Below are positions 2,454 through 63,307 of a stretch of 64,000 bases of DNA, piece after piece. Each line of letters opens with the position of its first letter. The stretch's first letter is position 1. The stretch covers positions 572-64,571 of the forward strand of contig JBBTUL010000012.1 in assembly GCA_038063755.1 (NCBI GenBank). The letters are read 5' to 3'. The notes beneath the pieces are model-generated. The model made no database searches. It saw only the letters and a list, made by a program, of their open reading frames with translations, and was not told where the DNA came from. The DNA comes from Patescibacteria group bacterium. Lineage in GTDB: Bacteria > Patescibacteriota > Minisyncoccia > UBA6257 > 2-01-FULL-56-20. A program made the position numbers and the translations under genes.

Positions 2454-2473
2454 GAAAAGATTCAAAAACTTTT

Positions 2474-5111: not shown

Positions 5112-5112
5112 A

Positions 5113-45884: not shown

Positions 45885-47609
45885 ATGAAAGACAGAGTAG
45901 CGAGGCGGCAGGCTCTATTTCTTTTCCTGGCAGCATGCCTCTTTTTTCGTTCGTGGATTGCGCACGGAGCAATCATTCCCTATATAAACGATACTATTTC
46001 TACGTCAGAGCCGGGAGCGGCGGCAGACCAAACGATTGTGTTTCAAGTCGCAAGAAGCGTTCCGCCTGGAGGAGCGATCGTGATTACGCCGCAGGCAGGA
46101 GCGTTTTCGATTCCTTCTGATCTTGATGCGACAGATGTTGATTTTGCGACCTCTTCCTCGCCGACGGGAGCTTGGCAAGAACGAGCGCTTTCGTCTTTTG
46201 CGTCAACAACGGCAGACGAGGTGAGCGTCGTTTCGGGGAGTTTTGGATCTATCACGATCACCCTTTCCTCCGGAGAGGGGCTTGAGGCCGGTATTTTTTC
46301 GCGAGTTAAAGTTGGACTACATGCAGAATCAGGGGACGCAGGGGACAAGCAGATAACAAACTCAACTTCTACCGGTTCATACCGAATATTTGTCGAAACG
46401 AGAAGCAGCACGTCTTCGCTCATCGATCAGGGAACAACGATGATTGCGATTGTTGCGCCAATAAATTCCGGAGCAGGAAGAACGGATTTCGATCCACCGC
46501 TTAGATCAAACGGTCTTCCGGCGAGCGCGCTTCCTGGAGGAACCTCTAACGTAGAAATATCACTTAATACTGATGAGCTTGCATTTTGTAGATACGCAAC
46601 ATCATCGGGAATTGCGTATGCGGGCATGGTGAATTATTTTTCGAACACGACAAGCACGCTTCATTCGATGGTTATCACGGGACTTGCAAGCGGAGCGGCG
46701 TATTCTTTCTACACGCGATGCGGCGATCTTTTCGGAAACAACAATCCGGACGACTTCGAAATTGCATTTACAATCGACCCGCCGCTTCCTCCGCCTCCAT
46801 CCGGACAAGGAACCGTTGTTGGCGGGACGGGCGCAGGTAGTGGAGGCGGGGGTGGCGCTCCGTTTCCGGTACCGCTCGGGCAGCCATCGGTAACATTTAA
46901 AGGAAGAGCATATTCGTCCGCAGAGGTCATCCTATTAAAAGACGGGAAACAAGAGAAGCAAGTGTTTGCCGATAGCGAAGGAGTTTTTGAGTTGACCGCG
47001 CAAAATCTTTCGCAGGGAGTTTATGGGTTTTCTCTTTTTGCGGCCGATTCGAAGGGAAGAAAGTCGGGATCATACGGAACGACCCTTACTCTTGTTTCCG
47101 GAACGCGTAATGTGATTTCAAATATATTCCTTCCGCCCACCATAGGAGCGCTTCGGACAAACCTCAAAAAAGGTGAGCAATTATTAGTTGAAGGACAAAC
47201 CATTCCGCACGCAACCCTCGAAGTGCTTCTCTATAGGCGTTCAGATGCCGCACAGCTTGAGCAGAAGGCGCTGAAGTACAGCGCAACAGCAAAAAGCAGC
47301 GGTGCTTGGCAATTCGTCATTCCAACAGTCTCTCTTTCGGAAGATGTCTATGAGGTCAGGGCTCGAGCGACATCCGATGATATTGGAACAAGTATCTTGG
47401 GTTCTCCTATTGCGGTGGGAGTTGGGCGAGACGTAGGTGCTTCTGCTTCAAAGAGCGCAGACTTCAATCGGGATGGGAGAGTAAATCTTGTAGACTTCTC
47501 GATTTTTCTTGTGTATTTAAACGGAAAAAACGTCGAAGGTGATTTAAACGATGATGCAAAGGTAAACATCGCGGATTTTAGCATCCTGCTCTTCCAGTGG
47601 ACCGGGTAA
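45885..47609 (+). CDS. secreted multi-domain protein with C-terminal tandem dockerin-type calcium-binding repeats
   Basis: Signal peptide, Ig/Fn-like repeats and a poly-Pro/Gly linker. The C-terminus DFNRDGRVNLVDFSIFLVYL...DLNDDAKVNIADFSILLFQW is two dockerin segments (D-x-N-x-D-G-x-V-N-x-x-D + helix). Confidence 0.6.
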   Translation: MKDRVARRQALFLFLAACLFFRSWIAHGAIIPYINDTISTSEPGAAADQTIVFQVARSVPPGGAIVITPQAGAFSIPSDLDATDVDFATSSSPTGAWQERALSSFASTTADEVSVVSGSFGSITITLSSGEGLEAGIFSRVKVGLHAESGDAGDKQITNSTSTGSYRIFVETRSSTSSLIDQGTTMIAIVAPINSGAGRTDFDPPLRSNGLPASALPGGTSNVEISLNTDELAFCRYATSSGIAYAGMVNYFSNTTSTLHSMVITGLASGAAYSFYTRCGDLFGNNNPDDFEIAFTIDPPLPPPPSGQGTVVGGTGAGSGGGGGAPFPVPLGQPSVTFKGRAYSSAEVILLKDGKQEKQVFADSEGVFELTAQNLSQGVYGFSLFAADSKGRKSGSYGTTLTLVSGTRNVISNIFLPPTIGALRTNLKKGEQLLVEGQTIPHATLEVLLYRRSDAAQLEQKALKYSATAKSSGAWQFVIPTVSLSEDVYEVRARATSDDIGTSILGSPIAVGVGRDVGASASKSADFNRDGRVNLVDFSIFLVYLNGKNVEGDLNDDAKVNIADFSILLFQWTG

Positions 47610-47651
47610 GCGAAAAGAGAGGATTCTTCCTATGATATACTATGAGTAACG

Positions 47652-48158
47652 ATGACTTCGTTTCTCGAAAAACTGAACGAAAAACTTGGGAAAACCGTTA
47701 CGCAGACCGCGAAACCTGAGGGCGGTGAGACGGCTGGTCCAGAAGTGGCGCGACAAGAGGTGTTTACAAAAAACACCGACCTTCCCGCGGATATATATCA
47801 AAATCCAACACACATTATCGTTTATATTCCTGCCGCAGGGGTACATCCGCAGGATTTCGAAGTTGTCCTTGACGAAGAGCATGATCTTTTAACGATTCGA
47901 GGATTGAGGACAAGACCACAAGACGTTGCTGGTATCGAAAAGGACGAAGATGGGCATTTCATTTCTCAGGAGTGCAAGTGGGATTCACTATTTAGAAAAA
48001 TAATACTTCCTGCCGAAGTTGATCCATCTCGCGTCGAGGCTATTTTTACAAAGGGAGTGCTGGTGATTAAGCTCCCCATATTAAAACCAGGAGAGGGCGT
48101 AAAGCTTCGCGTGAAAGAAGTGGAAAGCCCGGCAAAGACCGTTCAAAAAGCGACATGA
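47652..48158 (+). CDS. Hsp20/alpha-crystallin family small heat-shock protein
   Basis: Alpha-crystallin domain (FEVVLDEEHDLLTIRG...IILPAEVDPSRVEAIFTKGVLVIKLP). Confidence 0.8.
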   Translation: MTSFLEKLNEKLGKTVTQTAKPEGGETAGPEVARQEVFTKNTDLPADIYQNPTHIIVYIPAAGVHPQDFEVVLDEEHDLLTIRGLRTRPQDVAGIEKDEDGHFISQECKWDSLFRKIILPAEVDPSRVEAIFTKGVLVIKLPILKPGEGVKLRVKEVESPAKTVQKAT

Positions 48159-49942
48159 TTTCAAGAAGAAAAAGGAACCTATACGCTCTTCTTCTGTGTG
48201 CCGCATGCGTTGCAGCGGTCACCCCTTTTTTTATTCAACGAGCTGATGTTTTTGCGGCCGGGCCATCTCTTGGCATAAGTCCAGCAAGCGGTTCGTATGG
48301 AACCGGGGGAACGTTTACCGTAAAAATTATGCTTCAAGGATCGGGCGGAGTCGGTATAAATGCCGCAGATGGGGTTTTAGTTTTTGACAAAACCCTCCTC
48401 TCCGTGCAGAGCGTGTCAAAAGAGAATTCAATTTTCAGTCTGTGGACTGCCGATCCAAGCTTCTCGAATGGGGCAGGTACGGTAAGCTTCAGCGGCGGAA
48501 CGCCGACTCCGTTTACAAAAGAAAGCGGAGCAGTTATGTCGGTGGTGTTTAAAGCCGTTGCTCCGGGCGATGCAAGCGTCGAGCTTTCCGAGGGATCCAT
48601 TCTTGCTGCGGATGGAAAAGGAACGAACGTATTAAGTTCGCTCGGGAAAGCGACGTACACGCTTGGCGGATTATCTGCGAATCCGAAGAAGGCACCAGAG
48701 ATAACTGGAGCAGGAACGGCACCAGCAGAGTTGAAGGTCGAGACGAAAGGACAATTCGCTCCTTCAACGGAGATCGTTTCGCAAAGTCACCCGAATGCTG
48801 ACAGCTGGTATTCAAATAAAAACCCAGAATTTTCGTGGAAGCTTGACCCGCTTATCGCAGGCGTAAGCACGGCCCTTACCGAGAAAGCAGGTTCCGATCC
48901 CGGCCGAGCATCAGAAGGGCTACAAGAGACGAAGAGGTTCAACGATGTCGAGGATGGTATTTGGTACTTCCATGTGCGGTTTAAAGATCAAAATGGAGCT
49001 TGGAGCGCTCCAATGCATCGGAGGGTTGGAATTGATACGATTGCTCCTCTCGCATTTGACCTTGCTGTGCAGAAAGAGCTGTCGGAAGAGGGCTATCGGT
49101 TGTCGTTCATTGCGGAAGACGCACTTTCCGGAATTGATCACTACGAAATTCGACTCGATGGAAAGGAGATCGCCTCGCTTGGCGTAGATGTTCCGACGAA
49201 AGGACCATATCGTATGTCGGCGCTTTTGTCGGGGAAGCACGCAGTGACGGTCCGCGCGCTTGATAAAGCAGGGAACGCCACAGAATCAACAAAAGAGCTT
49301 GTTGCGGAAGGTATTGGAACGCCGAAGATCACAAATTTCCCAGACACAACGAAAGAACATGTGCCGGTCGTGATTCAGGGTATCGCGGACTCAAAAGCGA
49401 CGGTGCTCGTGATGATCGACAAGGAAGGGAAGGAATTTTCAAGAGAACGAGTGCGAGCGACTGATGATGGTGGATGGGTGTATGGGAGGCAAGAGGGAGT
49501 TCCGCCGGGAAATTACACCATTACCGCAAAGATGCTTGGTGCATACGGAACAGAAAGCCAGACCTCAGAGTCGATTTCGATTTATGTTTCAAGAACTCCG
49601 CTTGTCGAGCGATTCGGACTCATTGCAATTATCGTGCTCGCCCTTGCGGTCGCAGGCCTCGTGAGCGCTCTTTGGTACGAAAGGAAGATTTTCATACGGA
49701 GCAAGAGCCGAGCGCTTGAAGAGGTGAAAGAGATACAAGCAAAAACAAAAGCAGTATTCGAGGCTCTTCGCGAGGAAGTTGAAGAAAAAGTAAAAATGCT
49801 TGACGAGAAGCCATCTACCCCAGAAGAGGCGATCGATGCCATCGATACGGATCGCGTTGTTGATAGCATACGCGAGGCACTCGATGTTTCTGAGGACATG
49901 ATCTCGAAAGAGGTCGAGGATGTCCAAAAAGCGCTCGAATGA
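48155..49942 (+). CDS. membrane-anchored protein with N-terminal cohesin-like domain (putative dockerin receptor/scaffold)
   Basis: Signal peptide. GTFTVKIMLQG...INAADGVLVFDKTLLSVQSV...VMSVVFKAVAPGDASVEL resembles the cohesin signature (CDFVYSYDPNVLEIIEI...ATIVAKVKSGAPNG). There is an SGIDHYE...RALDKAGN module shared with the 62327 protein, a C-terminal TM (LIAIIVLALAVAGLVSALWY) and a cytoplasmic coiled-coil tail. Confidence 0.55.
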   Translation: MISRRKRNLYALLLCAACVAAVTPFFIQRADVFAAGPSLGISPASGSYGTGGTFTVKIMLQGSGGVGINAADGVLVFDKTLLSVQSVSKENSIFSLWTADPSFSNGAGTVSFSGGTPTPFTKESGAVMSVVFKAVAPGDASVELSEGSILAADGKGTNVLSSLGKATYTLGGLSANPKKAPEITGAGTAPAELKVETKGQFAPSTEIVSQSHPNADSWYSNKNPEFSWKLDPLIAGVSTALTEKAGSDPGRASEGLQETKRFNDVEDGIWYFHVRFKDQNGAWSAPMHRRVGIDTIAPLAFDLAVQKELSEEGYRLSFIAEDALSGIDHYEIRLDGKEIASLGVDVPTKGPYRMSALLSGKHAVTVRALDKAGNATESTKELVAEGIGTPKITNFPDTTKEHVPVVIQGIADSKATVLVMIDKEGKEFSRERVRATDDGGWVYGRQEGVPPGNYTITAKMLGAYGTESQTSESISIYVSRTPLVERFGLIAIIVLALAVAGLVSALWYERKIFIRSKSRALEEVKEIQAKTKAVFEALREEVEEKVKMLDEKPSTPEEAIDAIDTDRVVDSIREALDVSEDMISKEVEDVQKALE

Positions 49943-49970
49943 ACTTGAGGCATAACGCCCATGACAAGTT

Positions 49971-51410: not shown

Positions 51411-51462
51411 GCATTCTTCGGCTTCTCTGTGTCTTGTTCTACAATATAGGAAATAGGCGCTT

Positions 51463-54093
51463 ATGCGCAGTGTCCTTATGAAGAAAGAATTTGTTCATGT
51501 CAGTGTTATAGCTCTCGCCATCGGACTTTTGTGGTTCGGGAGCGTGCGCCTCCTTTTCCTTTCTCCCCCGAACGAGGGGCGCGCTGCCCAGGTGACGATT
51601 GATTCGACCGTGCACACCACGGCGACCACCCACAACGGTACGACGCTTACCGTTGCCTTCACGAGCGATCAGACCGGATACTCATTTTACAGGGACGCGA
51701 GCGGCAGTTGTGGATATCGGAAAACCACCGACGGCGGAGCGACATGGACGACGACCACGACACTCATAGATACGCAGACGGATTGTCTCCGTATCGCGAT
51801 CTGGTATGACCGCTGGACGCCGGGAAACGCCACCGGAACCATTATCCATGTTTCGACGATCGACTCCGGAAGTGACAACGTGTGGTACAACTATCTCGAC
51901 ACATCGGGTGACACGCTCGGAAGCACAACCGCGGTAAACGCGACCGGCATAAATCAAGGAGGAACGTTCGCTGCCGGATCGAATCTTCAGGCGATAACAA
52001 GAGGAACGGACGGAACATTGTATATGGGTGTTCAGGATGCGAGCGATTCGTTCGTGATCCAGTGCACGGGAAGTTGCGTGGCGACATCGGGGAGCTGGAC
52101 GGAGGCCGGGACGAACCCTTTTAGTTTGGCGAACGACTGGCTACTACTCGCGCCCATCACGAACGGGCGCATCCTCGCGGTCCGTTGGAGTCTCACGCTC
52201 GACGATGTGCAGTCTAAAATTTGGACCCCCGCATCGAGCTCGTGGAGCGGAGCGTGGACCAATATCGACACGAACTGTATTCAGAACGGTACCTACGACG
52301 GACACTTCGGTCTTTCAATCAACAAAAATACAAATAGCGTGTTGATGGCCTTCGGTTGCGATCTGAGCACCATTGGAGCGAACAACGACGACATCCGGAC
52401 CGCAATTTTTAACTCGTCGAACAGTACCTGGGCTACCACCACAGATGCGGTTACGAACGATACGAAGGGTATCACCGGAGTAAAGCTCGGACTCGACGAC
52501 AATACCGGAAATATTTATGTGGTTTACAGCGCGAGGGCGACGTCGACCATCTCCACCTCGACGAACGTCTATTATAAGGTTTCGACGAGCACCATGTTGT
52601 CGTGGGGAGCAGAGCAAGGGCCATTAAACACCGCACCCGACGACATATACGGCCTGCGCATCGATGGATTGAACGCGGACAGGATTTACGCGACATGGGT
52701 GGGTGTCACCGCGGACTCGCTTTACGGAAACACCGTTGCCGATCTTGTGCCGACCACATTCGAACAGTCGGGATATCGCTGGTTTACGAATCAAAACGCC
52801 ACAAGCGTGGGGCCTCCATTCGCGCTTCAGAATACATCATCCGTTGCGCCGAGCATCGGCAATCCGTTTCGTTTGCGCATGTTGGTCCATGTCGGAGGCG
52901 ACGGCGCGGACGTAAACAGGGAATCTTTTGATCTTCAGGTCGCGACAAGCACTGCGGGCGGGTGCGACACCGCTTTCTCCGGCGAAACATACGTCGACGT
53001 TTCGACATCGACCGGAGAAATCCGTTTCTACGACAACAGCTCGTCGAGCGACAATACCGCCCTCAAGGCGACATCGACGGATCCGGTTCACGGAATCGAC
53101 ACCGTCGTAAACCAAACCTACGAAGAGGCGAATCCATTCACGAATTCGATAGCGAAAATATTCGGCGGACAGGACGGGAAATGGGACTTCTCGCTCTACA
53201 ACGCATCGGCGACCCCGATGAGCACGTATTGTTTTCGTATTGTGAGGGACGACGGATCCCCTCTAAGTACATATTCGGCCGTTCCCGAAATAACGATAGA
53301 CGACCCGCCATCCGTTTCGGGCGTCGTGCTAAACGATGATACAAATATTGCGCTTACTGAGGGGGTAACGTGGCAGATTTTTGCGAGCGGAACTATTACC
53401 GATAGCAACGGATATGCTGATATCGTCGGCGCGCAAGCAAAAGTATATCGATCCGGCGTAGGACGGTCATGTTCGCCGAATGACAACAACTGCTACCAAG
53501 ATAGTTCATGTTCTCTTGCGGGGTGTTCTGGGACGACGTGCAAGGCTCTTTGTTTTGTGAATGTGCAGTATTTTGCCGATCCGACAGATACCGATACGCC
53601 ATACGAAGCAGAGTCCTGGCTTGCAAGTATTGAAGCCGTTGACGCGCGATCCGCAACAAGCACGGCAACAAGCACGGCGATTGTCGATGTGCTTTCGCTT
53701 CTCGCGCTTGCTGTGACGCCGCAGATAAATTATGGAAGCCTGAGTCCAGGCGCGATTATCGATCCGCTCTCCGCGACATCAAGCGTGTCCGCAAGCGGCA
53801 ATGTTTCGATTGACACAACCCTTTACGGTGCGAACATGACTTCGGGGGCGGAGAGTATCAGCGTCTCGAATGAGCGGTACGCAACCACGTCAATTCCTTT
53901 TTCATCGGGGACAGTGCTTCTTGCAAGTCCGGGAGCCGCGCTCGATTTAAACATTCCAAAAACGTCAACCTCAACCTCACAAGCAAGCTCAACTGTTTTC
54001 TGGGGCATACAGGTTCCACTACCGCAGCCAACCGGAAACTATACCGGCATTAATACGTTTATCGCCACAGAGAACACTCTTCCCTGGCCGTAG
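51463..54093 (+). CDS. giant (876 aa) BNR/Asp-box surface protein, paralog of the 37080 protein
   Basis: Conserved N-domain and a BNR motif (KTTDGGATWTT). Shared internal block DPVHGIDTVVNQTYEEANPFTNSIAKIFGGQDGKWDF, versus DPVHGGHPATAQTYEEANPFTNSISRVASGTDGIWDF in the 37080 protein. Shared C-terminal module ends NYTGINTFIATENTLPWP. Confidence 0.7.
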   Translation: MRSVLMKKEFVHVSVIALAIGLLWFGSVRLLFLSPPNEGRAAQVTIDSTVHTTATTHNGTTLTVAFTSDQTGYSFYRDASGSCGYRKTTDGGATWTTTTTLIDTQTDCLRIAIWYDRWTPGNATGTIIHVSTIDSGSDNVWYNYLDTSGDTLGSTTAVNATGINQGGTFAAGSNLQAITRGTDGTLYMGVQDASDSFVIQCTGSCVATSGSWTEAGTNPFSLANDWLLLAPITNGRILAVRWSLTLDDVQSKIWTPASSSWSGAWTNIDTNCIQNGTYDGHFGLSINKNTNSVLMAFGCDLSTIGANNDDIRTAIFNSSNSTWATTTDAVTNDTKGITGVKLGLDDNTGNIYVVYSARATSTISTSTNVYYKVSTSTMLSWGAEQGPLNTAPDDIYGLRIDGLNADRIYATWVGVTADSLYGNTVADLVPTTFEQSGYRWFTNQNATSVGPPFALQNTSSVAPSIGNPFRLRMLVHVGGDGADVNRESFDLQVATSTAGGCDTAFSGETYVDVSTSTGEIRFYDNSSSSDNTALKATSTDPVHGIDTVVNQTYEEANPFTNSIAKIFGGQDGKWDFSLYNASATPMSTYCFRIVRDDGSPLSTYSAVPEITIDDPPSVSGVVLNDDTNIALTEGVTWQIFASGTITDSNGYADIVGAQAKVYRSGVGRSCSPNDNNCYQDSSCSLAGCSGTTCKALCFVNVQYFADPTDTDTPYEAESWLASIEAVDARSATSTATSTAIVDVLSLLALAVTPQINYGSLSPGAIIDPLSATSSVSASGNVSIDTTLYGANMTSGAESISVSNERYATTSIPFSSGTVLLASPGAALDLNIPKTSTSTSQASSTVFWGIQVPLPQPTGNYTGINTFIATENTLPWP

Positions 54094-54125
54094 GATTCTC
54101 GAAAACTCCTGGTACAATAAGAGGT

Positions 54126-55625: not shown

Positions 55626-55635
55626 TCACGACAAT

Positions 55636-56946
55636 ATGCCAGAACCAATCATCACAGGAAAAGATCTTCGCGTAGTGTACAATCTTGGGAAGTCCAACGA
55701 GTATCTTGCTCTTAAGATCGACGATTTCGAGATATACCCGCAAGAATACATTATTTTATTCGGTCCTTCTGGGTGCGGGAAGTCAACACTGCTTTACTCC
55801 CTTCTTGGGGTTCTTCCCCCGACATCGGGAGAGCTTCTTATCAAAGGTGAGAACCCGTACAAATATTCGGATGCGAAAATGGTTCGTTTCCAGCAGTCGG
55901 TTGTCGGAATCATTTATCAGTCATTTAACCTTATCCCCTCGCTTTCCGTTTTGGACAACGTTGCCTTGCCGAGAATTTTCGCAAATGCACCCAAAGCAGA
56001 ACGCGAACGACAAGGATTCGCACTGCTTCGAAGATTCGGAGTCGAAGCACAGGCGCGCAAGCTTCCAACGTCTCTCTCGGGAGGACAAATGCAGCGTATC
56101 GCCGTTGCCCGTTCGCTCGTAAACGATCCGGAAATACTTTTGGGCGATGAGCCGGTAGGAAACCTTGACAGCGTTTCGACGAAGCAGGTCATGGACACGT
56201 TGGACGAAATCAATATGCGAGATAGAAAAACAATCATTCTCGTTACGCACGATGCGAAGCATTTGCCATATGCGCACCGCGTTTACCACATGAGAGACGG
56301 AAAGATTGTCCGAGAGGTCATTAATCCGGAAAAGCCGCAGATAAAAAAAGTTGAGAAGGGAAAAACGATTTTAACCGAGATCGAAAAGCTTTCACGCATA
56401 TTCCCATATGCAACTCCAGAAGAGCTTCGCGTGAAGAGCATTGTAAACTTTCTGACACAAGAACTTACCTTCGATCAGCTGCAGCGACTGGAGGTTCTTG
56501 TGGAATCTTTTTTGAACGGAAGACTCGAAGAAGCGACATTTTTATGGAGCCTTCGCGCTCCATTCGACAAGGGAGGCGCCGGGGTTCCGGAACGCACCGC
56601 AGAAGAAATGGTTCACCGAGTATCGAAAATCGTCACGGATGCAAGGAATATAAGCAGATTCAGAAGGCGATTCGAAGAGCGTGTGAAGTCCTCGAAACAG
56701 CAGGAAAGAATCATTGATTTAAGAAAAAGCCTACTTGATGCTTACGAAGGGCAAGTAACACTCGAAGAGCTCGGTCGCCTTGAGGGGGCTCTCCAGAGGC
56801 GCGTATCGGGCCTTATGACCCTCGAGGAATTTAGGGAGGAGCTCCACAAGCCGCTTGAGCAGGGCGGGATTGGATTTCACACCTCGACCGCGCATAGATT
56901 TTCTCAACATCTTGAGAAGTTGATTGCGCAAGGAACGCATTTATAA
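55636..56946 (+). CDS. ABC transporter ATP-binding protein (MacB/LolD-type) with about 200-aa helical C-terminal extension
   Basis: Walker A GPSGCGKSTLL, signature LSGGQMQRIAVARSL, Walker B ILLGDEP, and a long extra C-terminal domain of unknown function. Start taken at the first ATG after the upstream gene. Confidence 0.8.
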   Translation: MPEPIITGKDLRVVYNLGKSNEYLALKIDDFEIYPQEYIILFGPSGCGKSTLLYSLLGVLPPTSGELLIKGENPYKYSDAKMVRFQQSVVGIIYQSFNLIPSLSVLDNVALPRIFANAPKAERERQGFALLRRFGVEAQARKLPTSLSGGQMQRIAVARSLVNDPEILLGDEPVGNLDSVSTKQVMDTLDEINMRDRKTIILVTHDAKHLPYAHRVYHMRDGKIVREVINPEKPQIKKVEKGKTILTEIEKLSRIFPYATPEELRVKSIVNFLTQELTFDQLQRLEVLVESFLNGRLEEATFLWSLRAPFDKGGAGVPERTAEEMVHRVSKIVTDARNISRFRRRFEERVKSSKQQERIIDLRKSLLDAYEGQVTLEELGRLEGALQRRVSGLMTLEEFREELHKPLEQGGIGFHTSTAHRFSQHLEKLIAQGTHL

Positions 56947-56947
56947 C

Positions 56948-58156
56948 ATGAGACTAGACGATACCATAAAACTTTCCACGCGCATGTTTAAGACGAATCC
57001 GGCACGTACGTGGCTCACCATCCTCGGTATGGGCGTGGGAACTTCCGCGGTTGTCCTTCTGGTCGGACTTGGATTCGGACTGCAAGGCATTCTTCTCGAG
57101 CAGATTGTTTTTGGAGATACGCTCTTAAGCTTAAACGTTACAAATCCCGGATCTCGCGTAGTGGTTCTTGATCAGTCGCGACTCGAAGAGTTTTTGAAAA
57201 TAGAAAACGTAGAGGACGTCTCGCCGCTCGGAAGCGTTTCGGCGCTCATCACATTCAACAACCTAACCGGAAACATAACGCTTCAAGGAAGCGGACCATC
57301 GTATTTTCGCTACACCGGGACGCTTGCTGACAAAGGAGGAATTTTTAAAAAAGGGGAGGAGGCGGAGGACCGAAACAAAGTTCTTCTTTCTAAAGGAGCG
57401 CTGAAACTTTTTGGAATCGAGAACACAGAAGACGCATTGGGTAAGCCCGTTAGGTTTCGCGCGTTTGTAAAAAATCCGACGAATGGCACGACGCAAGAGG
57501 TTTCGATTGAAAAGGAGTATACCGTGAAGGGAGTAACGAACGATGCAGCTTCGATAATCGCCATGCTCACCCTCGAGGAATTTTCTTCGCAGGTTCCGAT
57601 TTCTTCCTACGAGCGCGTTCAGGTCAAGGTGACGAATAGCAACTTCCTCACTCAAGTACAAGACGCCATTGTGGGGAAAGGGTTCGTGGTAACGGCGCTT
57701 TCAAAAACGGTCGAACAAGCGAATAAAATTTTTAAAGGAGTACAGGCCGTGCTCGCATGTTTCGGAGGAATAGCACTTCTGGTTTCTGCAATCGGAATGT
57801 TTAATACGATGACCGTCACCCTGCTTGAGAGAACGAACGAAATCGGCATTATGCGAACCATTGGGGCATCACCGCGAGACATCAAGATACTGTTTCTTTC
57901 CGAATCGGTTGTCGTGGGATTTTTGGGCGGGGTAATCGGAATACTGATCGGAGTAATAATAGGCGTCGGATTAAACCTGATTTTAAACGCCGTGGCGAGT
58001 CATTTCGGAGGAGTTGCTGTCCGTCTTTTCAGATATCCATGGCTCTTTCTCATTTTTATTGCCACATTTTCCGGCGTAGTGGGGTTCCTGACCGGACTTT
58101 TTCCTGCAAAAAGAGCTTCGGGGCTGAACCCGCTCGACGCAATTCGATATAAGTAG
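56948..58156 (+). CDS. ABC transporter permease, FtsX/MacB-like (N-terminal TM, large extracytoplasmic domain, 3 C-terminal TM)
   Basis: MacB-PCD-like periplasmic region followed by an FtsX domain ending in the GLNPLDAIRYK motif. Starts 2 nt after the ATPase stop. Confidence 0.75.
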   Translation: MRLDDTIKLSTRMFKTNPARTWLTILGMGVGTSAVVLLVGLGFGLQGILLEQIVFGDTLLSLNVTNPGSRVVVLDQSRLEEFLKIENVEDVSPLGSVSALITFNNLTGNITLQGSGPSYFRYTGTLADKGGIFKKGEEAEDRNKVLLSKGALKLFGIENTEDALGKPVRFRAFVKNPTNGTTQEVSIEKEYTVKGVTNDAASIIAMLTLEEFSSQVPISSYERVQVKVTNSNFLTQVQDAIVGKGFVVTALSKTVEQANKIFKGVQAVLACFGGIALLVSAIGMFNTMTVTLLERTNEIGIMRTIGASPRDIKILFLSESVVVGFLGGVIGILIGVIIGVGLNLILNAVASHFGGVAVRLFRYPWLFLIFIATFSGVVGFLTGLFPAKRASGLNPLDAIRYK

Positions 58157-58230
58157 TTTTTGTGTTCAGCCTTCTTCCGCTCTTCCTCTTGCGAGGGGAA
58201 AGTGCTTATTTTCCGAAATAAAAGACCGGA

Positions 58231-58242
58231 TGTGGATAACTT
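58231..58242. promoter_or_regulatory. second copy of the TGTGGATAACTT motif, upstream of the 58290 gene
   Basis: Exact 12/12 identity with 43019-43030. It lies about 50 nt upstream of the start codon. Confidence 0.3.
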
Positions 58243-58289
58243 CTGGATTTCCTGTGTGTTAAGATAAGGCTATAAGGAATTTTGAAAGA

Positions 58290-60110
58290 ATGAACGAAAG
58301 AAAAGCAGGAAAAATAACGATTTCAGTTGTGCTTGTCAGCGCAATTATATTCGTTTCGGCAATGGCCATTCGGTTTTCTCCGTTCGTTCCGGTTCATTTA
58401 AGTAGCGTAAATGCGGATACCGCAACAACGAGCGTGACGGTAGTAAACACTCCGCCGAATTGGAGCGTGGATGCGCAGGAATATGTTGTGTCATCGACGA
58501 GTACGCCGACAAATGCAAGCTCCACGGTAACCTGGGTCGGTACGGCCATCGACGACAACAGCGAAAACTATTATTTATTGCTTTGCAAGACGACCTCAAC
58601 CCCAACCGCAAACGCGAGCGCCGCGCCTACTTGTGCCGGCGGGGCATCGAATCAATGGGGAGTCTCTCCTTCAACAATAAGTAGCATTCAGGCTACCACC
58701 ACCTATATTGCCAAGGTGACAGATGTTGAGGCAAACGACTGGTATGCCTGGATATGTGATGGAAACCCCGCAAATCCCCGTTGTAATACCACATACAAAA
58801 CAGGAACCGGCAATACCGCCTCCCCCTTTGTGGTGAACCATCGGCCGGCATTTACCTCTTTTGTTGACGATTCGCCCAAAAACCCAGGCGACACGGTTAC
58901 TTGGACTTCAGTATCAAGCGATGCCGATGTTTATGGCGGACAAGATCTAGTAACGCTCTATGTGTGCAAGGCAAGTGATTTTAATGGAACAGCATGTGGT
59001 GCAGGCGGAACATATTGCACTTCGAGTGCAACATCTTCCAATCCAACCTGCAACTTCGCGCTTGAAAATCCGAAGCAAGACACGAACTACTCCGCGTATG
59101 GTTATGTAATCGATAACCATAATTTCGCGGCGCTGGGCGGATCACATGGATCCGATTCGTCGATTACTATTTCAAACGTTGCGCCAAGCATCGCGTCTTC
59201 GAGCATACAACTTCTTGACACCGATGAAGCAGGAGGGCTTACGCTTACGAGTCCTTCGGCACAAACTAGCGGTTTTAAAGTTAAGCTTACCGTGACAGAC
59301 AACAATAGCTGTCAAAACGCATCCGCAGGACAGGAGATCGCCTCAGCGCTTGTTAATGTGTATCGATCGGGTATTGGACAGGCAGGCTGTCAGACGAGTG
59401 GAAATTATAACGCAAATAATTGTTATGCGGGAGCAGTCAGTACTTCAACCTGGAATGTTTCCTGCACGCAAGATGGAGGATCGTGTTCTGGCGGATCTGA
59501 TTCAACGGCGACCTGGACGTGTACTTTCCCACTCTGGTTTCTCGCAGATCCGACCGACGGCTCTTCGCTTACCGACTCAACATGGTTTGCCGAAAACTGG
59601 CTTCCTTCAGTTCGTGTGACGGACGACAATACTGCAACGAGCACACTCACCGAAGCAAGCTCTGGAAACGAGGTGTTGAGCTTTATGGCGTATACGCTCA
59701 ATACTTCGCAAATCAGCTATGGCTCTCTTGAACCAGGACAGAGGAACGATCCCGTCTCTCAGACAACACTTTTTTCGGCTACCGGAAACGTTGGGCTTGA
59801 CCAAACGCTCTATGGAAACGATATGTGTACAACATATCCAAGCTGCAATCCTGTAAGCACCACATCAACCATTCCCAAGGGGAAACAGCACTATGCGACC
59901 TCAGGTCTTGCCTACGCCTCGGCCATAGCGCTTATAGTGGATCCGGGAGCAGAGCTTGAGCTAAATGTCCTAAAAACGACATCAACGAGCACTCCAGCAA
60001 ATGCAAACACCTTCTGGGGGATCGAAATTCCGTCAAGCATTACTCTCGCAGGAGACTATACCGGCCAAAACACGTTTATTGGGATAAAAGGGGAAGCGCA
60101 AAGCTGGTAG
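58290..60110 (+). CDS. secreted Thr/Ser/Cys-rich surface protein carrying the shared C-terminal beta module
   Basis: Signal peptide. The C-terminal ~170 aa (ISYGSLEPGQRNDPVSQTTLFSATGNVGLDQTLYGNDM...DYTGQNTFIGIKGEAQSW) align with the C-termini of the 51463 and 37080 proteins. Confidence 0.6.
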   Translation: MNERKAGKITISVVLVSAIIFVSAMAIRFSPFVPVHLSSVNADTATTSVTVVNTPPNWSVDAQEYVVSSTSTPTNASSTVTWVGTAIDDNSENYYLLLCKTTSTPTANASAAPTCAGGASNQWGVSPSTISSIQATTTYIAKVTDVEANDWYAWICDGNPANPRCNTTYKTGTGNTASPFVVNHRPAFTSFVDDSPKNPGDTVTWTSVSSDADVYGGQDLVTLYVCKASDFNGTACGAGGTYCTSSATSSNPTCNFALENPKQDTNYSAYGYVIDNHNFAALGGSHGSDSSITISNVAPSIASSSIQLLDTDEAGGLTLTSPSAQTSGFKVKLTVTDNNSCQNASAGQEIASALVNVYRSGIGQAGCQTSGNYNANNCYAGAVSTSTWNVSCTQDGGSCSGGSDSTATWTCTFPLWFLADPTDGSSLTDSTWFAENWLPSVRVTDDNTATSTLTEASSGNEVLSFMAYTLNTSQISYGSLEPGQRNDPVSQTTLFSATGNVGLDQTLYGNDMCTTYPSCNPVSTTSTIPKGKQHYATSGLAYASAIALIVDPGAELELNVLKTTSTSTPANANTFWGIEIPSSITLAGDYTGQNTFIGIKGEAQSW

Positions 60111-60190
60111 TCTTCTTGAGCGAAGAAGATCTAGCGCTCAGGCGTGATTTTCGCGTATAATCAAGGATGTTCGGCTAGGAACATGTTTTT

Positions 60191-61138
60191 ATGACACGAA
60201 CGAAGATTGAATGTACCCGGATTATTTTTCTGTTTGTTTTCGGAGTTATTTTTGCAACGAACACCGCGCTTGCCGGTTTTGGAATTACTCCACCATACGT
60301 GAAGAACGACGGTCTTACCAAAAGCTCACACTACGAACAAAAAATAGTTTTAGTCCGCGGTGATCCCGTGGAAGATCTTCGCGCAAAAATTACCGTGAAC
60401 GTCCCCGGTGCGGACGAGTGGATATCTGTTGATCGCGGACTCGAATTCATGCTTCCCAAAGGAGAGCAGCAAACACCGATCGTTGTAAGCGTTGATGTCC
60501 CTAAAAAAGTAAAATTCGGAGAGTACAAAGGAAACATCCGTGTTGTCATTTCTCCGCTTGGCGGGCCGCAGGCAGGAACCGTTGGGGTCGTGCTCGGTGC
60601 GCAGATCGACGTTGTTTTGAATATTATCGACAAGCAAGTTGCAACATTCCGCGTATGGACCGTAAACATTTCCGATCTCGAAGAAGGAAGGAAAGTTGCA
60701 TGGATGGATTTCCCCGGGAAAATTCGTTTTACTATGCAGATCGAAAACTCCGGAAATGTTGCGATCGCGCCGAGCAGGGTTGAATTTGAAATCCGCGATA
60801 GCCAAGGAAACGTTATCGAAAAGACCCAAAATACTGGTTCAATAAAAAAGCTGCAGCCGTTTGAGGTCAAGCAGGTTATTGCCGAGCTCCCGACGTGGGT
60901 GAAGGCTGGAAACTATACTGTTGGGTACAAAATTTACAACAAAGAGGAGGTGGTCCATTCCGGCGATCTTTCGCTCAGCATCCTTCCGAGAGGTTCGCTT
61001 CCGGGTTATTTGGGATACGGAGTCCTAGGTCTTTCCGTTGGCGATCTCGGAGTTCTCATCCTCATAATAGGAGCGGCGCTTCTCACCCTTGGGGTGGGTA
61101 TCCGCTGGGTCATTCTCCATGTCCGAATTAGGCAATAA
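60191..61138 (+). CDS. membrane-anchored surface protein, paralog family A (fourth copy)
   Basis: Signal peptide, ...IENSGNVAIAPSRVEFEIRDSQGNVIEK..., and a C-terminal TM (LGVLILIIGAALLTLGVGI) with a basic tail. Confidence 0.55.
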   Translation: MTRTKIECTRIIFLFVFGVIFATNTALAGFGITPPYVKNDGLTKSSHYEQKIVLVRGDPVEDLRAKITVNVPGADEWISVDRGLEFMLPKGEQQTPIVVSVDVPKKVKFGEYKGNIRVVISPLGGPQAGTVGVVLGAQIDVVLNIIDKQVATFRVWTVNISDLEEGRKVAWMDFPGKIRFTMQIENSGNVAIAPSRVEFEIRDSQGNVIEKTQNTGSIKKLQPFEVKQVIAELPTWVKAGNYTVGYKIYNKEEVVHSGDLSLSILPRGSLPGYLGYGVLGLSVGDLGVLILIIGAALLTLGVGIRWVILHVRIRQ

Positions 61139-62288
61139 ACGCCGAAAACAAAGGGTTCTCGAGCGGCCTTGTTTATGTATTCGAGTCGCTGTTTTAACCT
61201 TTACGGCCATTTTGCTTGCCGGAGTTCCGCCGACGAGCTTTGCGACGGATCCGATTGTTGCAACGACGACCGTGACGGTAAGTATTTGCGGAAATGGAGC
61301 TATTGAGTCCGGGGAGGCTTGCGACGACGGCATAAACCCAGGAGGGTATGCGACATCGACCGCGGGGCGAGAGTGTGCGCCTGGATGTACCTCGTTCGGC
61401 CCATATTGCGGCGATCAAGTTCTTCAAGTGCTCTATATGGAACAGTGCGATGACGGAAACAACACATCGGGAGACAGATGTTCGGATGTGTGTGTCATAG
61501 AGAATATTTCTGCGATGGGAGGATCGAGCGGGGGAGCGGGCCCTTTTCCTGGCGGATCGTTCAATCAACCCCAAGCGACAAAGGTGGTGATACAGGGCAA
61601 GGCATACCCCGATGCAAACGTGAGCATCTTGAAGGATGGAACCGCCATCGGAGTTGTTCGCGCAAATGCTCAGGCTGATTTCTACTTCGCCTCGCCGGAA
61701 ATATCCCCAGGAGTGACTACGTTCGGATTTTGGGCAGAAGACAACAAGGGACTTCGATCAATTGCTCTTACGACAACGCTTACGGTTACCGCGAACGCAA
61801 TAACTACCATTTCGGGAGCATTTCTTCCTCCGACAATAAACATCGACAAGCGGAGTGTTAAAAAAGGCGAGGTATTAAATATTTCCGGACAATCCGCTCC
61901 ACTCGTGAGCGTTGTGGCGCACGTAAACTCAGAAACAAAAATAACCGAGGAAGTAAAGACAAACACTCAAGGTGAGTGGAAGGTGCCATTCGACACGGCG
62001 CCGCTTTCCGAAGAAGAGTTTCATAGCGCGAAAGCACAATTCAGGACCGTAAGCGAAGGGAATATAATTTCGAGCGCATTTAGCCAAACACTAAGCTTCT
62101 ACGTTGGCGTTAAGGGGGAGGGGAGGGCGTTTGTTGCGGACTTAAACCAAGACAAGAAGGTAAATCTTGTCGACTTTTCGATCCTCCTGTTTTATTGGGG
62201 GACGGCAACGCCGCTTGCGGATTTAAACCAAGACAAGAAGGTAAATCTCACCGACGTGTCGATATTATTGTTTTACTGGACTGGATAA
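61119..62288 (+). CDS. secreted protein with Cys-rich CGxG...CDDGN repeats and C-terminal tandem dockerin-type repeats
   Basis: CGNGAIESGEACDDGINPG and CGDQVLQVLYMEQCDDGNNTSGDRCSDVC are a Myxococcus-type Cys-rich repeat pattern. The C-terminus has two repeats of ADLNQDKKVNL(V/T)D(F/V)SILLFYW. Paralogous to the 45885 protein. Confidence 0.55.
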   Translation: MSELGNKRRKQRVLERPCLCIRVAVLTFTAILLAGVPPTSFATDPIVATTTVTVSICGNGAIESGEACDDGINPGGYATSTAGRECAPGCTSFGPYCGDQVLQVLYMEQCDDGNNTSGDRCSDVCVIENISAMGGSSGGAGPFPGGSFNQPQATKVVIQGKAYPDANVSILKDGTAIGVVRANAQADFYFASPEISPGVTTFGFWAEDNKGLRSIALTTTLTVTANAITTISGAFLPPTINIDKRSVKKGEVLNISGQSAPLVSVVAHVNSETKITEEVKTNTQGEWKVPFDTAPLSEEEFHSAKAQFRTVSEGNIISSAFSQTLSFYVGVKGEGRAFVADLNQDKKVNLVDFSILLFYWGTATPLADLNQDKKVNLTDVSILLFYWTG

Positions 62289-62326
62289 GGACGAATTGAG
62301 CTTTTCTTCATATTTAATGTGTTAAT

Positions 62327-63307
62327 ATGAACAATATACTTATGAGAAGTTCATTCTACGGTCTTCTTGTCGGCTTCCTCGTCCTACTTGCGGCGTCTCC
62401 TGCCGCGTATGCAGCAAAGCTTTACCTTTCTCCTGCGGATGGAGTTTTTGCGCAAGGGGAAGCATTTAAGGTGCAGATTCGGGTTGATAACGAAAAAGAA
62501 TGCGTGAATGCGGCACAGGTAAATCTTTCATACGACAAATCATTGCTCGAGGTTCTCGATGTTTCTCGAGGCGATTCGATATTTACCTTGTGGGTGAGCG
62601 ACCCGTTTATCAATCCGAAGTTTGGAACCATATCTTTTTCCGGAGGGATCCCTGGCGGTTACTGTGGACGAGTTTCCGGTGATCCAAGTCTTACGAACAC
62701 GATCGCAACGGTGGTGCTTCGATTCGCTTCTTTGCCCGATGGAATAGGGGCTTCTCCGTCGGCAGCGGTTGGTTTTCTCGGGGGGACCGAAGTTTTGTTA
62801 AACGATGGACTAGGGACGCCGGCAAAGCTGTCTCTCGAGGGGGCATCATTTACAACAAAGAAGGGAGACGGCGCTTCTCGAAATCAGTGGATCGACGAAA
62901 TCAAGAAAGACAAAGTTCCGCCAGAACCATTTTCGGTAGAAGTACACCAAGACGAAGCGCTTTTCGGGGGAGGCCACTTTATAGTTTTCTCAACCCTTGA
63001 TAAGCAAAGCGGGATCGATCATTACGAAGTGATAGAGTCCGATGCCCAGGGGTTTGATCAGGGAGGGTTCAGAAAAGCAAAATGGCGCCGTGTTACCAGC
63101 CCCTATCTTTTGAAAGATCAGGAGGTGAGAAGTTTAATTAAAGTTCGGGCGCTTGATAAGGCTGGGAATGAAAGAATAGGAGAATTTGTTCCAGAAAACG
63201 TCCGTCAGGCACCATTCAAGACAAAATCATTCTTCTGGACGACAGCGGCCCTCGTGATAAGCGCACTTGCCGCGTTCTTCCGCATATTCATTTTAAAGAA
63301 GCTCTAA
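62327..63307 (+). CDS. membrane-anchored protein with N-terminal cohesin-like domain (second scaffold paralog)
   Basis: Signal peptide. AFKVQIRVDNEKECVNAAQVNLSYDKSLLEVLDVS...ATVVLRFASLPDG is a cohesin-like signature. Shares the SGIDHYEV...RALDKAGN module and has a C-terminal TM (FFWTTAALVISALAAFF). Confidence 0.55.
   Translation: MNNILMRSSFYGLLVGFLVLLAASPAAYAAKLYLSPADGVFAQGEAFKVQIRVDNEKECVNAAQVNLSYDKSLLEVLDVSRGDSIFTLWVSDPFINPKFGTISFSGGIPGGYCGRVSGDPSLTNTIATVVLRFASLPDGIGASPSAAVGFLGGTEVLLNDGLGTPAKLSLEGASFTTKKGDGASRNQWIDEIKKDKVPPEPFSVEVHQDEALFGGGHFIVFSTLDKQSGIDHYEVIESDAQGFDQGGFRKAKWRRVTSPYLLKDQEVRSLIKVRALDKAGNERIGEFVPENVRQAPFKTKSFFWTTAALVISALAAFFRIFILKKL

Follow-up and report, generated by a model that had tools for sequence, protein, structure and literature searches.

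What do two pairs of adjacent cohesin and dockerin genes do in a bacterium with a reduced genome? The window analyzed here, a stretch of 64,000 nucleotides from a Patescibacteria MAG (CPR, Parcubacteria-type), harbors two such pairs. CPR/Patescibacteria make up a large share of bacterial diversity, and their presumed lifestyle is attachment to host cells; to our knowledge, how they build and hold surface fibers is barely known, and the earliest structure we are aware of for a pilus specific to CPR dates only from 2026. Type I/II cohesin-dockerin interactions anchor cellulosomes to the cell surface, as in C. thermocellum (OlpA/OlpC/SdbA) and R. flavefaciens (ScaE). Non-cellulosomal examples include the Archaeoglobus fulgidus cohesin 2xdh and the NanJ/NagJ toxin complexes of Clostridium perfringens, for many non-cellulosomal dockerins no partner is known, and such modules were reportedly surveyed by Peer et al. 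in 2009 (FEMS Microbiol Lett 291:1). That cohesin-dockerin pairs exist outside cellulosomes is, as a general idea, long established (Peer et al. 2009, cited in PMC2930009).

Membrane-anchored cohesin proteins and secreted dockerin proteins

The four cohesin and dockerin genes were confirmed on the + strand at the coordinates below, within an ~26-kb array (37-63.3 kb) in which all genes lie on one strand. Gaps around these genes measure 7 to 42 nt, or the genes overlap.

45885..47609, + strand: DOC-L, 574 aa, secreted, dockerin-tailed
47460..47606, + strand: DOC-L dockerin module, two Ca-binding loop-helix repeats, DFNRDGRVNLVDFSIFLVYL and DLNDDAKVNIADFSILLFQW
47652..48158, + strand: Hsp20 / alpha-crystallin gene between DOC-L and COH-L (Pfam HSP20, E 4e-11)
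48155..49942, + strand: COH-L, 595 aa, membrane-anchored cohesin protein
61119..62288, + strand: DOC-Cys, 389 aa, secreted, dockerin-tailed, Cys-rich
62327..63307, + strand: COH-S, 326 aa, membrane-anchored cohesin protein

Pfam searches bear out the cohesin and dockerin identities that the initial annotation had read from sequence signatures, with all four proteins scoring above the gathering threshold by thin margins (0.5 to 5 bits): Cohesin (PF00963, threshold 24.1 bits) matches COH-L at 24.6 bits and COH-S at 29.5 bits, and Dockerin_1 (PF00404, threshold 22.9 bits) matches DOC-L and DOC-Cys at 25.9 bits each. Domain-level annotation exists for these proteins, NCBI already labeling the 62327 product a cohesin-domain protein. 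Independent evidence for the assignments, from paralogy, dockerin loops and homologs as described below, is strong. The cohesin modules show the nine-stranded flattened beta-sandwich (jelly-roll) fold, and the structures that match them best are those of type I cohesins that bind dockerin, determined in complex.

COH-L and COH-S are paralogous across the cohesin region (BLASTP E 4e-15), and each carries a single cohesin, with no further cohesin and no CBM found in either. In COH-S a signal peptide is followed by the cohesin (residues 30-178, nt 62414-62860), a second beta domain (202-287, nt 62930-63187) and a TM helix (295-325, nt 63209-63301). COH-L consists of a signal peptide, a cohesin at about residues 39-169 (nt 48269-48661), Ig-like domains (Big_13), a TM helix at 488-506 (nt 49616-49672) and an 89-aa acidic tail that is presumably cytoplasmic. 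Both proteins had been described as ending in a TM helix, which holds for COH-S; in COH-L the acidic tail follows the helix. The underlying claim of membrane anchoring is sustained across homologs, a signal peptide together with a TM helix at or near the C-terminus being present in 104 of 110 COH-S homologs and in all 88 COH-L homologs, where the tail after the helix has a median length of 83 aa.

Motif scanning recovered two tandem loops in each dockerin protein, as initially annotated; all four fit D1-x-N3-x-D5-x-x-V-N9-x-x-D12, and no further dockerin loop occurs elsewhere when the window is translated in all six frames. This agrees with the layout of type I dockerins, in which two tandem repeats of ~22 residues each consist of an F-hand Ca loop (D1, N/D3, D5, N/D9, D12) and a helix. 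The Ca-coordinating positions are conserved in both dockerin families. In the AF2 model of DOC-L (pLDDT 88.8), predicted helices at residues 535-544 and 562-573 follow one after each loop. The DOC-L family consensus, DLNxDGKVNLVDFSILL..W / DINxDGxVNLxDFSIMLfnWTG, is identical to that of DOC-Cys, so gene adjacency may not mirror binding specificity and the assignment of each dockerin to its neighboring cohesin is presumptive. The dockerin proteins are secreted, as had been claimed, and lack a C-terminal anchor, with a count of 0 C-terminal TM helices in 83 DOC-Cys homologs.

Cohesin and dockerin modules are the one feature that would suggest a minimal cellulosome-like enzyme complex, a reading to which we assign a very small probability. 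No GH, CE or PL domain was found in DOC-L, DOC-Cys or the other window genes scanned, upholding the reported absence of glycoside hydrolases, and the same genes include no dockerin-bearing CAZyme, no CBM and no multi-cohesin scaffoldin, which contradicts a cellulosome. The dockerin proteins are instead Ig, FN3, Cys-rich or pilin-like, and the host is a CPR bacterium with a reduced genome.

Conservation of the cohesin-dockerin gene pairs

The COH-S family is a large one, with 2194 clusters at 50% identity, and occurs in at least 247 species-level genomes. In 64 of 70 species-level loci, COH-S is preceded by a dockerin gene no more than 2.5 kb upstream, which is the immediate neighbor in 52, and the dockerin loop motif is kept in all 64 of these upstream genes; within a pilus-like cluster, members of the family nearly always have a dockerin gene as partner. 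DOC-Cys homologs number 1320, and about 70 full-length homologs of DOC-L were recovered; in both sets the majority have a precomputed PF00404 match. The gene order DOC-L / Hsp20 / COH-L is found again in 14 of 20 related loci, with one more locus containing an inserted cohesin gene. The pairing proposed in the initial annotation is in this respect supported by a strongly conserved gene neighborhood. Furthermore, an adaptor-scaffoldin-like protein of ~250 aa bearing both a cohesin and a dockerin is encoded in 33 of 82 related loci, which argues for a working cohesin-dockerin network.

These observations weigh against a reading without mutual binding, the dockerin being a Ca-stabilized C-terminal module for some other ligand (the host surface or the cell's own wall) and the cohesin-like domain one more beta-sandwich. 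Pfam scores barely above threshold and the many non-cellulosomal dockerins without a known partner would accommodate such a reading, but the co-conservation of the gene pairs, the single proteins with both modules and the kinship to type I cohesins solved with dockerin make it quite improbable. Previously described non-cellulosomal cases either link soluble enzymes or have unknown partners, whereas the pairs reported here are membrane-anchored, adjacent, conserved and embedded in a pilus-like cluster.

Pilus-like modules surrounding the gene pairs

The remaining genes of the array are as follows.

37080..40625, + strand: BIGa, 1181 aa, large BNR/propeller-like N-terminal part and Pam-type pilin C-terminal domain; candidate tip adhesin, module A
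40628-41671, + strand: chapA, signal peptide, beta-rich, C-terminal TM; candidate membrane-anchored chaperone
41604-42983 (ORF), + strand: chapB, signal peptide, beta-rich, C-terminal TM; chapA paralog, candidate membrane-anchored chaperone
43136..44260, + strand: pil374, 374 aa, pilin-like; N-terminal sandwich, linker, Pam-type C-terminal domain
44290-44319: strong, terminator-like stem-loop after pil374
44389-45480, + strand: chapC, chaperone-like, C-terminal TM
45485-45877, + strand: sTM, small TM / coiled-coil / TM protein
51463..54093, + strand: BIGb, 876 aa, candidate tip adhesin, module B
54126-55625, + strand: FN3-repeat protein (Pfam fn3)
55564-56946, + strand: MacB/LolCDE-type ABC transporter ATPase (Pfam ABC_tran; NCBIfam LolD/MacB-like)
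56984-58156, + strand: MacB/LolCDE-type ABC transporter permease (Pfam MacB_PCD, FtsX)
58290-60110, + strand: pil606, pilin-like; Pam-type C-terminal domain, mature N-terminal strand ATTSVTV
60191-61138, + strand: chap315, chaperone-like, C-terminal TM

Both modules combine a large adhesin-like protein with a pilin-like one that has the same Pam-type C-terminal (strand-acceptor) domain, and add one to three candidate membrane-anchored chaperones (signal peptide, beta-sandwich, C-terminal TM). On the 3' side, each closes with a secreted, acceptor-less protein that has a type-I-like dockerin tail, followed by the TM-held cohesin protein. The MacB-type ABC transporter is present in one of the two modules only. 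The dockerin/cohesin pair keeps its place at the 3' end of the pilin-chaperone module across tens of divergent genomes, the position of the FN3-repeat protein and ABC transporter is kept in related loci, and sTM immediately precedes DOC-L in 16 of 20. Since the pairs sit at the ends of pilus-like modules conserved across ultrasmall Patescibacteria, they probably serve to tether surface fibers or adhesins to the cell and not to build a cellulose-degrading machine. This pilus-like context had been missed in the initial annotation, whose reading corresponds to a stand-alone display of adhesins.

The Pam pilus of CPR is built from the pilins PamA/B, the TM-anchored chaperones PamC/D, the tip PamT and the TM-anchored terminator PamR, which inserts an N-terminal strand, and is often found detached in culture; its description makes no mention of a cohesin, dockerin, ABC transporter, Hsp20 or FN3 protein (bioRxiv 10.64898/2026.03.03.709456). 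The NCBIfam model of the Pam pilin C-terminal domain (NF058581, CPR_Pam_pilin_C) matches pil374 at 21.6 bits (E 1.8e-4, model positions 3-148 of 148) and the BIGa C-terminus at 19.6 bits (E 7.6e-4), about 20 bits against a cut-off of 55 bits that exceeds every match obtained here. In the pil374 family, 8 of 13 members match the model (best E 6.3e-6, whole model spanned). These scores, far under the cut-off, are consistent with a distant relative and, by NCBI's rule, do not confer membership. Profile comparison with hhalign aligned BIGa residues 960-1181 (99.8%) and pil606 residues 324-599 (99.6%) to the pilin family, the N-terminal part of BIGa having BNR matches. BIGb is paralogous to BIGa over its N-terminal 600 aa (BLASTP E 4e-105) and to pil606 in its C-terminal domain (E 2e-34).

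By the TM scan, each of the four candidate chaperones has a signal peptide ahead of a beta-rich body and a TM helix at the C-terminus, with chapA and chapB paralogous to chapC (44389; BLASTP E 1.7e-18 and 5e-46, respectively) and the C-terminal TM kept in 54 of 59 chap315 homologs; profile matches to these proteins are generic E-set ones rather than PapD/FimC-like, plus weak WxLIP and TcfC matches. The cluster resembles the Pam system in its two-domain pilin-like proteins with a C-terminal acceptor domain matching the Pam pilin model below cut-off, its chaperone-sized proteins with C-terminal TM, Sec signal peptides on all parts, the lack of an usher, and a CTD-less protein proposed to end the fiber at the membrane. 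It differs in lineage, Parcubacteria-type as opposed to Saccharimonadia or Microgenomatia, and in the conserved presence of Hsp20, the MacB-type ABC transporter and the FN3 protein. No PamR-type terminator (N-terminal strand, two FnIII domains, own C-terminal TM helix) was found in the cluster, whose CTD-less proteins end in dockerins without a C-terminal TM; the presumed terminator would carry a dockerin in place of its own TM helix, which resides on a separate cohesin protein. Judged jointly with the anchoring role considered below, the array has about an even chance, on these comparisons, of representing two surface-fiber modules distantly related to the Pam pilus.

Dockerin proteins resembling fiber subunits

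The dockerin-tailed proteins, initially characterized as Ig/Fn/Cys-rich passengers, look like fiber subunits in their sequences. The Cys-rich label is appropriate for the 61119 product, whereas the 45885 product begins with a pilin-type N-terminal domain. With limits taken from the AF2 model, DOC-L comprises a signal peptide (1-28), a pilin-type N-terminal beta-sandwich (29-190), an FN3-like domain (205-298), a disordered Gly/Pro linker (300-330), two Ig domains (335-415 and 420-513) and the dockerin (526-574); it also matches Pfam Big_13. Its residues 26 to about 200 align with the pilin family (hhalign, 99.6%, E 1.5e-24), a stretch that takes in the pilin N-terminal domain and runs into the linker, and the pilin C-terminal (acceptor) domain is absent from DOC-L both by hhalign and in the AF2 model. 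The linker is degenerate in the window's DOC-L (PINSGAGR), and most relatives have a V-x-V-x-type strand.

DOC-Cys has a signal peptide and then, at residues 46-56 (nt 61254-61286), the strand IVATTTVTVSI, followed by DUF4215 repeats rich in Cys (Pfam DUF4215 / myxo_disulf_rpt; TIGR02232, E 1.7e-13), two Ig-like domains and the dockerin (341-389, nt 62139-62285); over its last 250 aa it is a paralog of DOC-L (BLASTP E 3e-33). The mature N-terminal consensus of the family, ATT[TS]VTIS[IV], matches that of pil606, ATT[ST]VTVL. The common strand spans only about 7 residues, and the strict pattern is found in 21 of 60 DOC-Cys and 34 of 43 pil606 sequences. The N-termini of DOC-L and DOC-Cys each resemble the pilin of their own module, not that of the other.

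These N-termini bear on a reading in which TM-anchored cohesins hold dockerin-tailed adhesins as a stand-alone display and the pilus-like genes are separate, co-located through a role in host attachment. Domain, topology and synteny evidence would be the same under it, the DUF4215 repeats of DOC-Cys are typical of extracellular binding proteins, and the short DOC-Cys motif and degenerate DOC-L linker leave strand donation weakly supported. The complete pilin N-terminal domain of DOC-L, the module-specific resemblance of both N-termini and the fixed position of each pair behind a pilin-chaperone module speak against such a display, which we regard as possible but rather unlikely.

A putative cohesin-dockerin anchor at the fiber base

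We infer, with a confidence evenly balanced between its holding and failing, that Ca-dependent cohesin-dockerin docking anchors a basal, terminating fiber subunit to the membrane. All parts would be exported by Sec, with the cohesin ectodomain positioned just outside the membrane. The dockerin protein would enter the fiber through the N-terminal element that it has in common with the pilin of its module (for DOC-L, the pilin N-terminal domain plus linker; for DOC-Cys, the ATT[TS]VT[VI] strand) and, being unable to accept another subunit, would end the fiber at its base. Ca-dependent binding to the cohesin, for which cellulosome anchoring serves as a model, would then hold the fiber base on the cell, the pair standing in for the single-protein anchor PamR. 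More tentatively, and leaning against its holding in this general form, such a Ca-dependent plug-and-socket may be the basal anchor of donor-strand-assembled Pam-like pili in Parcubacteria-type CPR, in which an acceptor-less, dockerin-tailed pilin homolog would terminate the fiber and dock on a TM-anchored cohesin.

Compared with cellulosome anchoring, the pairs described here use a TM helix and not SLH domains or a sortase, carry one cohesin per protein without enzymes or CBMs, have pilin- or adhesin-like cargo and belong to a CPR host. In the sortase-dependent pili of Gram-positive bacteria, the basal pilin is linked to peptidoglycan, whereas no sortase or LPXTG motif was seen here and the proposed attachment would be non-covalent and Ca-dependent. 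If correct, fiber attachment would be modular and potentially exchangeable, a previously undescribed mode of anchoring bacterial pili beside ushers, sortases and TM-anchored terminators, and cohesin-dockerin modules would have a new, conserved physiological role unrelated to polysaccharide breakdown. Being small and soluble, the modules would also be open to expression and testing with no need to grow the organism. Should the pairs only display adhesins, they would still constitute a device for attachment that is widespread among ultrasmall bacteria and has gone unstudied.

The membrane cohesin could also act in assembly, recruiting the dockerin protein and the growing fiber beside the chaperones and the MacB-type transporter, with the fiber later released or otherwise held. 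A transporter of a class that acts mechanically on extracytoplasmic substrates, the detached Pam pili common in culture and the multi-step docking suggested by Coh+Doc adaptors would suit this alternative, but characterized cohesin-dockerin pairs are very tight, and we consider it improbable. The proposed basal anchor may itself extend further, via the Coh+Doc adaptors and through Hsp20 meeting the cytoplasmic tail of the cohesin protein; the Hsp20 gene encodes no signal peptide and overlaps the start of COH-L by 4 nt.

Cohesin and dockerin genes at the 3' ends of two modules

The cohesin and dockerin genes belong to an array of 18 consecutive genes on the + strand, running from 37080 to 63307 with short spacers or overlapping genes. 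On the basis of their Pam-type C-terminal domains (Pam being the published CPR pilus system) and of the PamC/D-like architecture of four transmembrane (TM) proteins, we read this array as two modules, both of which have at their 3' end a gene for a dockerin protein and then one for a membrane cohesin.

Genes of the array, in order
Module A
37080-40625, +, BIGa, large adhesin-like protein
40628-41671, +, chapA, candidate chaperone
41604-42983, +, chapB, candidate chaperone
43136-44260, +, pil374, pilin-like protein
44389-45480, +, chapC, candidate chaperone
45485-45877, +, sTM, protein with two membrane segments
45885-47609, +, DOC-L, secreted dockerin-tailed protein (574 aa)
47652-48158, +, Hsp20
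48155-49942, +, COH-L, membrane-anchored cohesin protein (595 aa)
Module B
+, g49971, first gene of the module
51463-54093, +, BIGb, large adhesin-like protein
54126-58156, +, FN3 protein, ABC (ATPase) and MacB, in this order
58290-60110, +, pil606, pilin-like protein
60191-61138, +, chap315, candidate chaperone
61119-62288, +, DOC-Cys, secreted dockerin-tailed protein (389 aa)
62327-63307, +, COH-S, membrane-anchored cohesin protein (326 aa)

The initial annotation had proposed two cohesin and two dockerin proteins at this locus, and Pfam searches bear out both identities. The Cohesin profile (threshold 24.1 bits) matches COH-L at 24.6 bits and COH-S at 29.5 bits, and Dockerin_1 (threshold 22.9 bits) matches DOC-L and DOC-Cys at 25.9 bits each. 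Because these margins are thin, we sought independent evidence. An AlphaFold2 model of COH-S built on 40 homologues (mean pLDDT 90.3) has a beta-sandwich at residues 30-178 and another beta domain at 202-287, between a signal-peptide helix and a TM helix (295-325), and its 50 top Foldseek matches in the PDB are all cohesins (best 2vn5_C, E 4.9e-9). COH-L is paralogous to COH-S across the cohesin (E 4e-15) and the domain behind it (E 3e-5). Sequence searches of the PDB with the pilin and COH-S, and with COH-S, chaperone and pilin profiles, returned a single weak cohesin match (E 0.13), the Pam pilins being undetectable in that PDB copy. Besides a signal peptide, both cohesin proteins carry a TM helix, which is present in 104/110 COH-S and 88/88 COH-L homologues. 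Both had been described as ending in this helix, which is true of COH-S, where it forms the extreme C-terminus, but not of COH-L, where it spans residues 488-506 and precedes an 89-residue acidic tail.

Each dockerin consists of two D-x-N-x-D-x-x-V-N-x-x-D repeats followed by a hydrophobic helix, with the canonical Ca-coordinating positions present in every loop, and the six-frame translation of the window contains no further instance of the loop motif. The DOC-L model (pLDDT 88.8) has a helix after each of its two Ca loops. The two dockerin proteins also bear signal peptides and lack any anchor at the C-terminus, and none of 83 DOC-Cys homologues has a C-terminal TM segment.

Pilin-like proteins and candidate chaperones

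The initial annotation's domain assignments for the four cohesin and dockerin proteins stand, but it had overlooked their pilus-like context. In NCBIfam, pil374 gives a weak match to NF058581 ("CPR_Pam_pilin_C, Pam pilus system pilin subunit"), a model that derives from a 2026 preprint (bioRxiv 10.64898/2026.03.03.709456), and the C-terminus of BIGa matches it too. Within the pil374 family, 8/13 members match the model over its full length, with a best E of 6.3e-6 and all scores under the 55-bit cut-off, which fits a distant Pam relationship, below the curated threshold. By profile comparison, the pil374-type C-terminal domain recurs in BIGa (99.8%) and pil606 (99.6%), and the C-terminal domain of BIGb is common to pil606 (E 2e-34). 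The preprint reports cryo-EM structures of two Pam pilins from a Saccharimonadia parasite and describes PapD-like chaperones that carry a TM helix at the C-terminus. In this system the tip subunit is made of the acceptor domain only, and the terminator, PamR, combines two FnIII domains with an N-terminal strand and a TM helix of its own (bioRxiv 10.64898/2026.03.03.709456).

The four proteins encoded at 40628, 41604, 44389 and 60191 are mutually related and beta-rich, each bearing a C-terminal TM helix besides its signal peptide, and they fit the PamC/D architecture, from which alone we designate them candidate chaperones. In Pfam, 13 chaperone-like members show scattered E-set matches only (CopC, CARDB, DUF7490), with WxLIP_PGBD, WxLIP_HBD and TcfC each appearing in one or two; one member, listed with 44389-45480, matches WxLIP_PGBD weakly (E 0.0027) and also WxLIP_HBD. 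The C-terminal tails of pil374, pil606 and BIGb (DYTNTLTYVATPTF, DYTGQNTFIG and NYTGINTFIA) resemble the C-terminal motif of Firmicutes WxL-domain surface proteins; the pilins give no WxL match in Pfam. A deep link between Pam-type systems and the WxL/DUF916 surface complexes of Firmicutes is conceivable.

A strong terminator-like stem-loop (44290-44319; 13-bp stem with 8 G-C pairs and a T-rich tail) lies 30 nt past the pil374 stop and was the sole stand-out in a promoter and terminator scan whose counts were no higher than the shuffled expectation. Many pilus operons use such a structure after the pilin gene as a means of over-expressing their major subunit. Module B also encodes, at 54126-58156, a protein with four FN3 domains and a MacB/LolCDE-type ABC transporter, whose ATPase has an additional C-terminal region of ~200 aa. 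Their position is kept in roughly 31-38 of 82 related loci. They are absent from the published pam operon and may supply energy for assembling or extracting precursors anchored in the membrane. In module A, sTM has a coiled coil between a signal/TM segment and a C-terminal TM helix with a basic tail, gives a weak GPS-CTERM-like match (E 6e-4), and lies immediately 5' of DOC-L in 16/20 related loci.

Dockerin proteins share N-terminal elements with pilins

In the DOC-L model, an N-terminal sandwich (29-190) is followed by an FN3-like domain and, past a disordered Gly/Pro linker, by two Ig domains and the dockerin. Foldseek searches with the whole model returned generic multi-Ig matches (S-layer proteins, receptors, complement), which left the N-terminal domain uninformed. 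Profile comparison aligned the DOC-L family with the pilin family (99.6% probability, E 1.5e-24) over the N-terminal pilin domain and the first part of the linker, past which the alignment diverges, DOC-L having no acceptor domain. Most DOC-L family members carry a V-x-V-x-type segment at the position of the pilin-linker strand; the window copy is degenerate there. Over its C-terminal 250 residues DOC-Cys is related to DOC-L (E 3e-33); it starts differently, with the strand consensus ATT[TS]VTIS[IV] directly past the signal-peptide cleavage site, followed by Cys-rich repeats. The family of the adjacent pil606 starts with ATT[ST]VTVLNTPP, and the strict N-terminal strand pattern occurs in 21/60 DOC-Cys and 34/43 pil606 sequences, as against 0 to 3 per family in seven others. 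Given these two likenesses, each dockerin protein appears to copy the N-terminal element of its own module's pilin without the acceptor part, the make-up that would be expected of a subunit terminating the chain at the base of the fibre. This would parallel PamR, except that here the membrane helix lies on a separate cohesin protein, with the dockerin as the link.

Conservation of cohesin-dockerin gene pairs

COH-S has 1412 database matches, relatives in at least 247 species-representative genomes and a family of 2194 clusters at 50% identity (E<=1e-30), and DOC-Cys has 1320 matches, most with precomputed PF00404. Homologues occur in Azam-, Sung-, Lipton-, Nealson-, Kaiser- and Nomurabacteria, Paceibacterota/Minisyncoccia and WWE3. 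We called ORFs in 82 COH-S loci, many truncated by contig ends, and matched them to the window proteins with phmmer. The usual order is BIGb, FN3, ABC, MacB, pil606, chap315, DOC-Cys, COH-S, COH-L. Where at least 1.4 kb of upstream sequence was available, a dockerin gene lies <=2.5 kb upstream of COH-S in 64/70 loci, directly adjacent in 52 of these, and the Ca-loop motif is kept in 64/64. A metagenome scan for the DOC-L family yielded 30 full-length loci, ordered [BIGa, chapA, chapB], pil374, chapC, sTM, DOC-L, Hsp20, COH-L.

This co-conservation, which is the main evidence that the cohesins and dockerins work together and stops short of proof of binding, speaks against the reading of the two domains as non-interacting modules, which we regard as unlikely. 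We reject chance or artefact on the fold, motif and conservation evidence.

A ~250-aa protein encoded in 33/82 loci (for instance L001 12694-13401, - strand; L024 3515-4240, - strand; L039 13445-14194, + strand), with no counterpart in the window, has a cohesin between an N-terminal TM segment and a C-terminal dockerin of another sequence type, and looks like an adaptor scaffoldin. Two giant proteins, P0328 and P0324 (2468 and 4269 aa), contain 18-31 copies of the second COH-S domain (profile positions 198-280), and in two related genomes (L088 14441-21698, L089 14385-21683) COH-L is followed by a 6220-aa giant DUF2341 protein.

The Hsp20 gene, which encodes no signal peptide, overlaps the COH-L start by 4 nt. 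The order dockerin, Hsp20, cohesin is found in 14-15 of 20 related loci (DOC-L/Hsp20/COH-L in 14/20 with enough downstream sequence, and one more with COH-S inserted), and an Hsp20 gene adjoins COH-S in four other loci. Hsp20 is presumably a cytoplasmic chaperone, and it is conserved within a surface-structure operon. COH-L homologues all have a ~83-aa tail after the TM helix, acidic in the window copy (49673-49939), and this tail could be an Hsp20 partner.

A putative mode of fibre anchoring

Signal peptides are seen on all parts of the proposed fibre system, which would be exported by Sec. The conserved TM helix would hold the cohesin ectodomain at the membrane, where the dockerin would dock in a Ca-dependent manner, as suggested by domain identity, Ca-loop conservation, synteny and the proteins combining both domains. 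We consider it likely that the cohesins and dockerins are true binding partners; since the two dockerins of the window have a common consensus, each may fit either of the cohesins. From the homology of its N-terminal element and the absence of an acceptor domain, the dockerin protein would be the last fibre subunit, anchored through the cohesin-dockerin pair. We put forward this anchoring role tentatively, at somewhat less than even confidence, and the statement combining docking with anchoring as evenly balanced. Stand-alone display of adhesins on membrane cohesins, the view of the initial annotation, is quite possible, if on the doubtful side, and recruitment of the dockerin proteins only transiently, during assembly, is a possibility of low probability. 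A cellulosome is ruled out for practical purposes because the locus has no enzymes; as the initial annotation had stated, no glycoside hydrolases were found in the window genes scanned.

Relation to known systems and other genes of the window

Cohesins and dockerins outside a cellulosome are not in themselves new: the literature on non-cellulosomal modules goes back at least to Peer et al. 2009, as listed among the references of PMC2930009, and NCBI names these proteins by domain, the one identical to COH-S being [quoted passage not shown]. No link of dockerins to CPR classes was found in the searchable literature, in which four features appear to be undescribed: single cohesins anchored by a TM helix and paired gene by gene with dockerin proteins across thousands of CPR sequences, the fixed placing of these pairs as the last genes of Pam-like pilus modules, a pilin homologue with a dockerin tail, and a conserved Hsp20 between the partners.

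Elsewhere in the window, dnaA and dnaN (2474-5111) lie beside a low-GC stretch (about 2000-6000; 0.39-0.41 versus about 0.49 elsewhere) that is probably the chromosomal replication origin region. The window also contains a PBP1 gene and a PilB/GspE-type ATPase (8537-10225; T2SSE, E 4e-119), the presence of which indicates that the organism has type IV pilus machinery in addition to the Pam-like genes.
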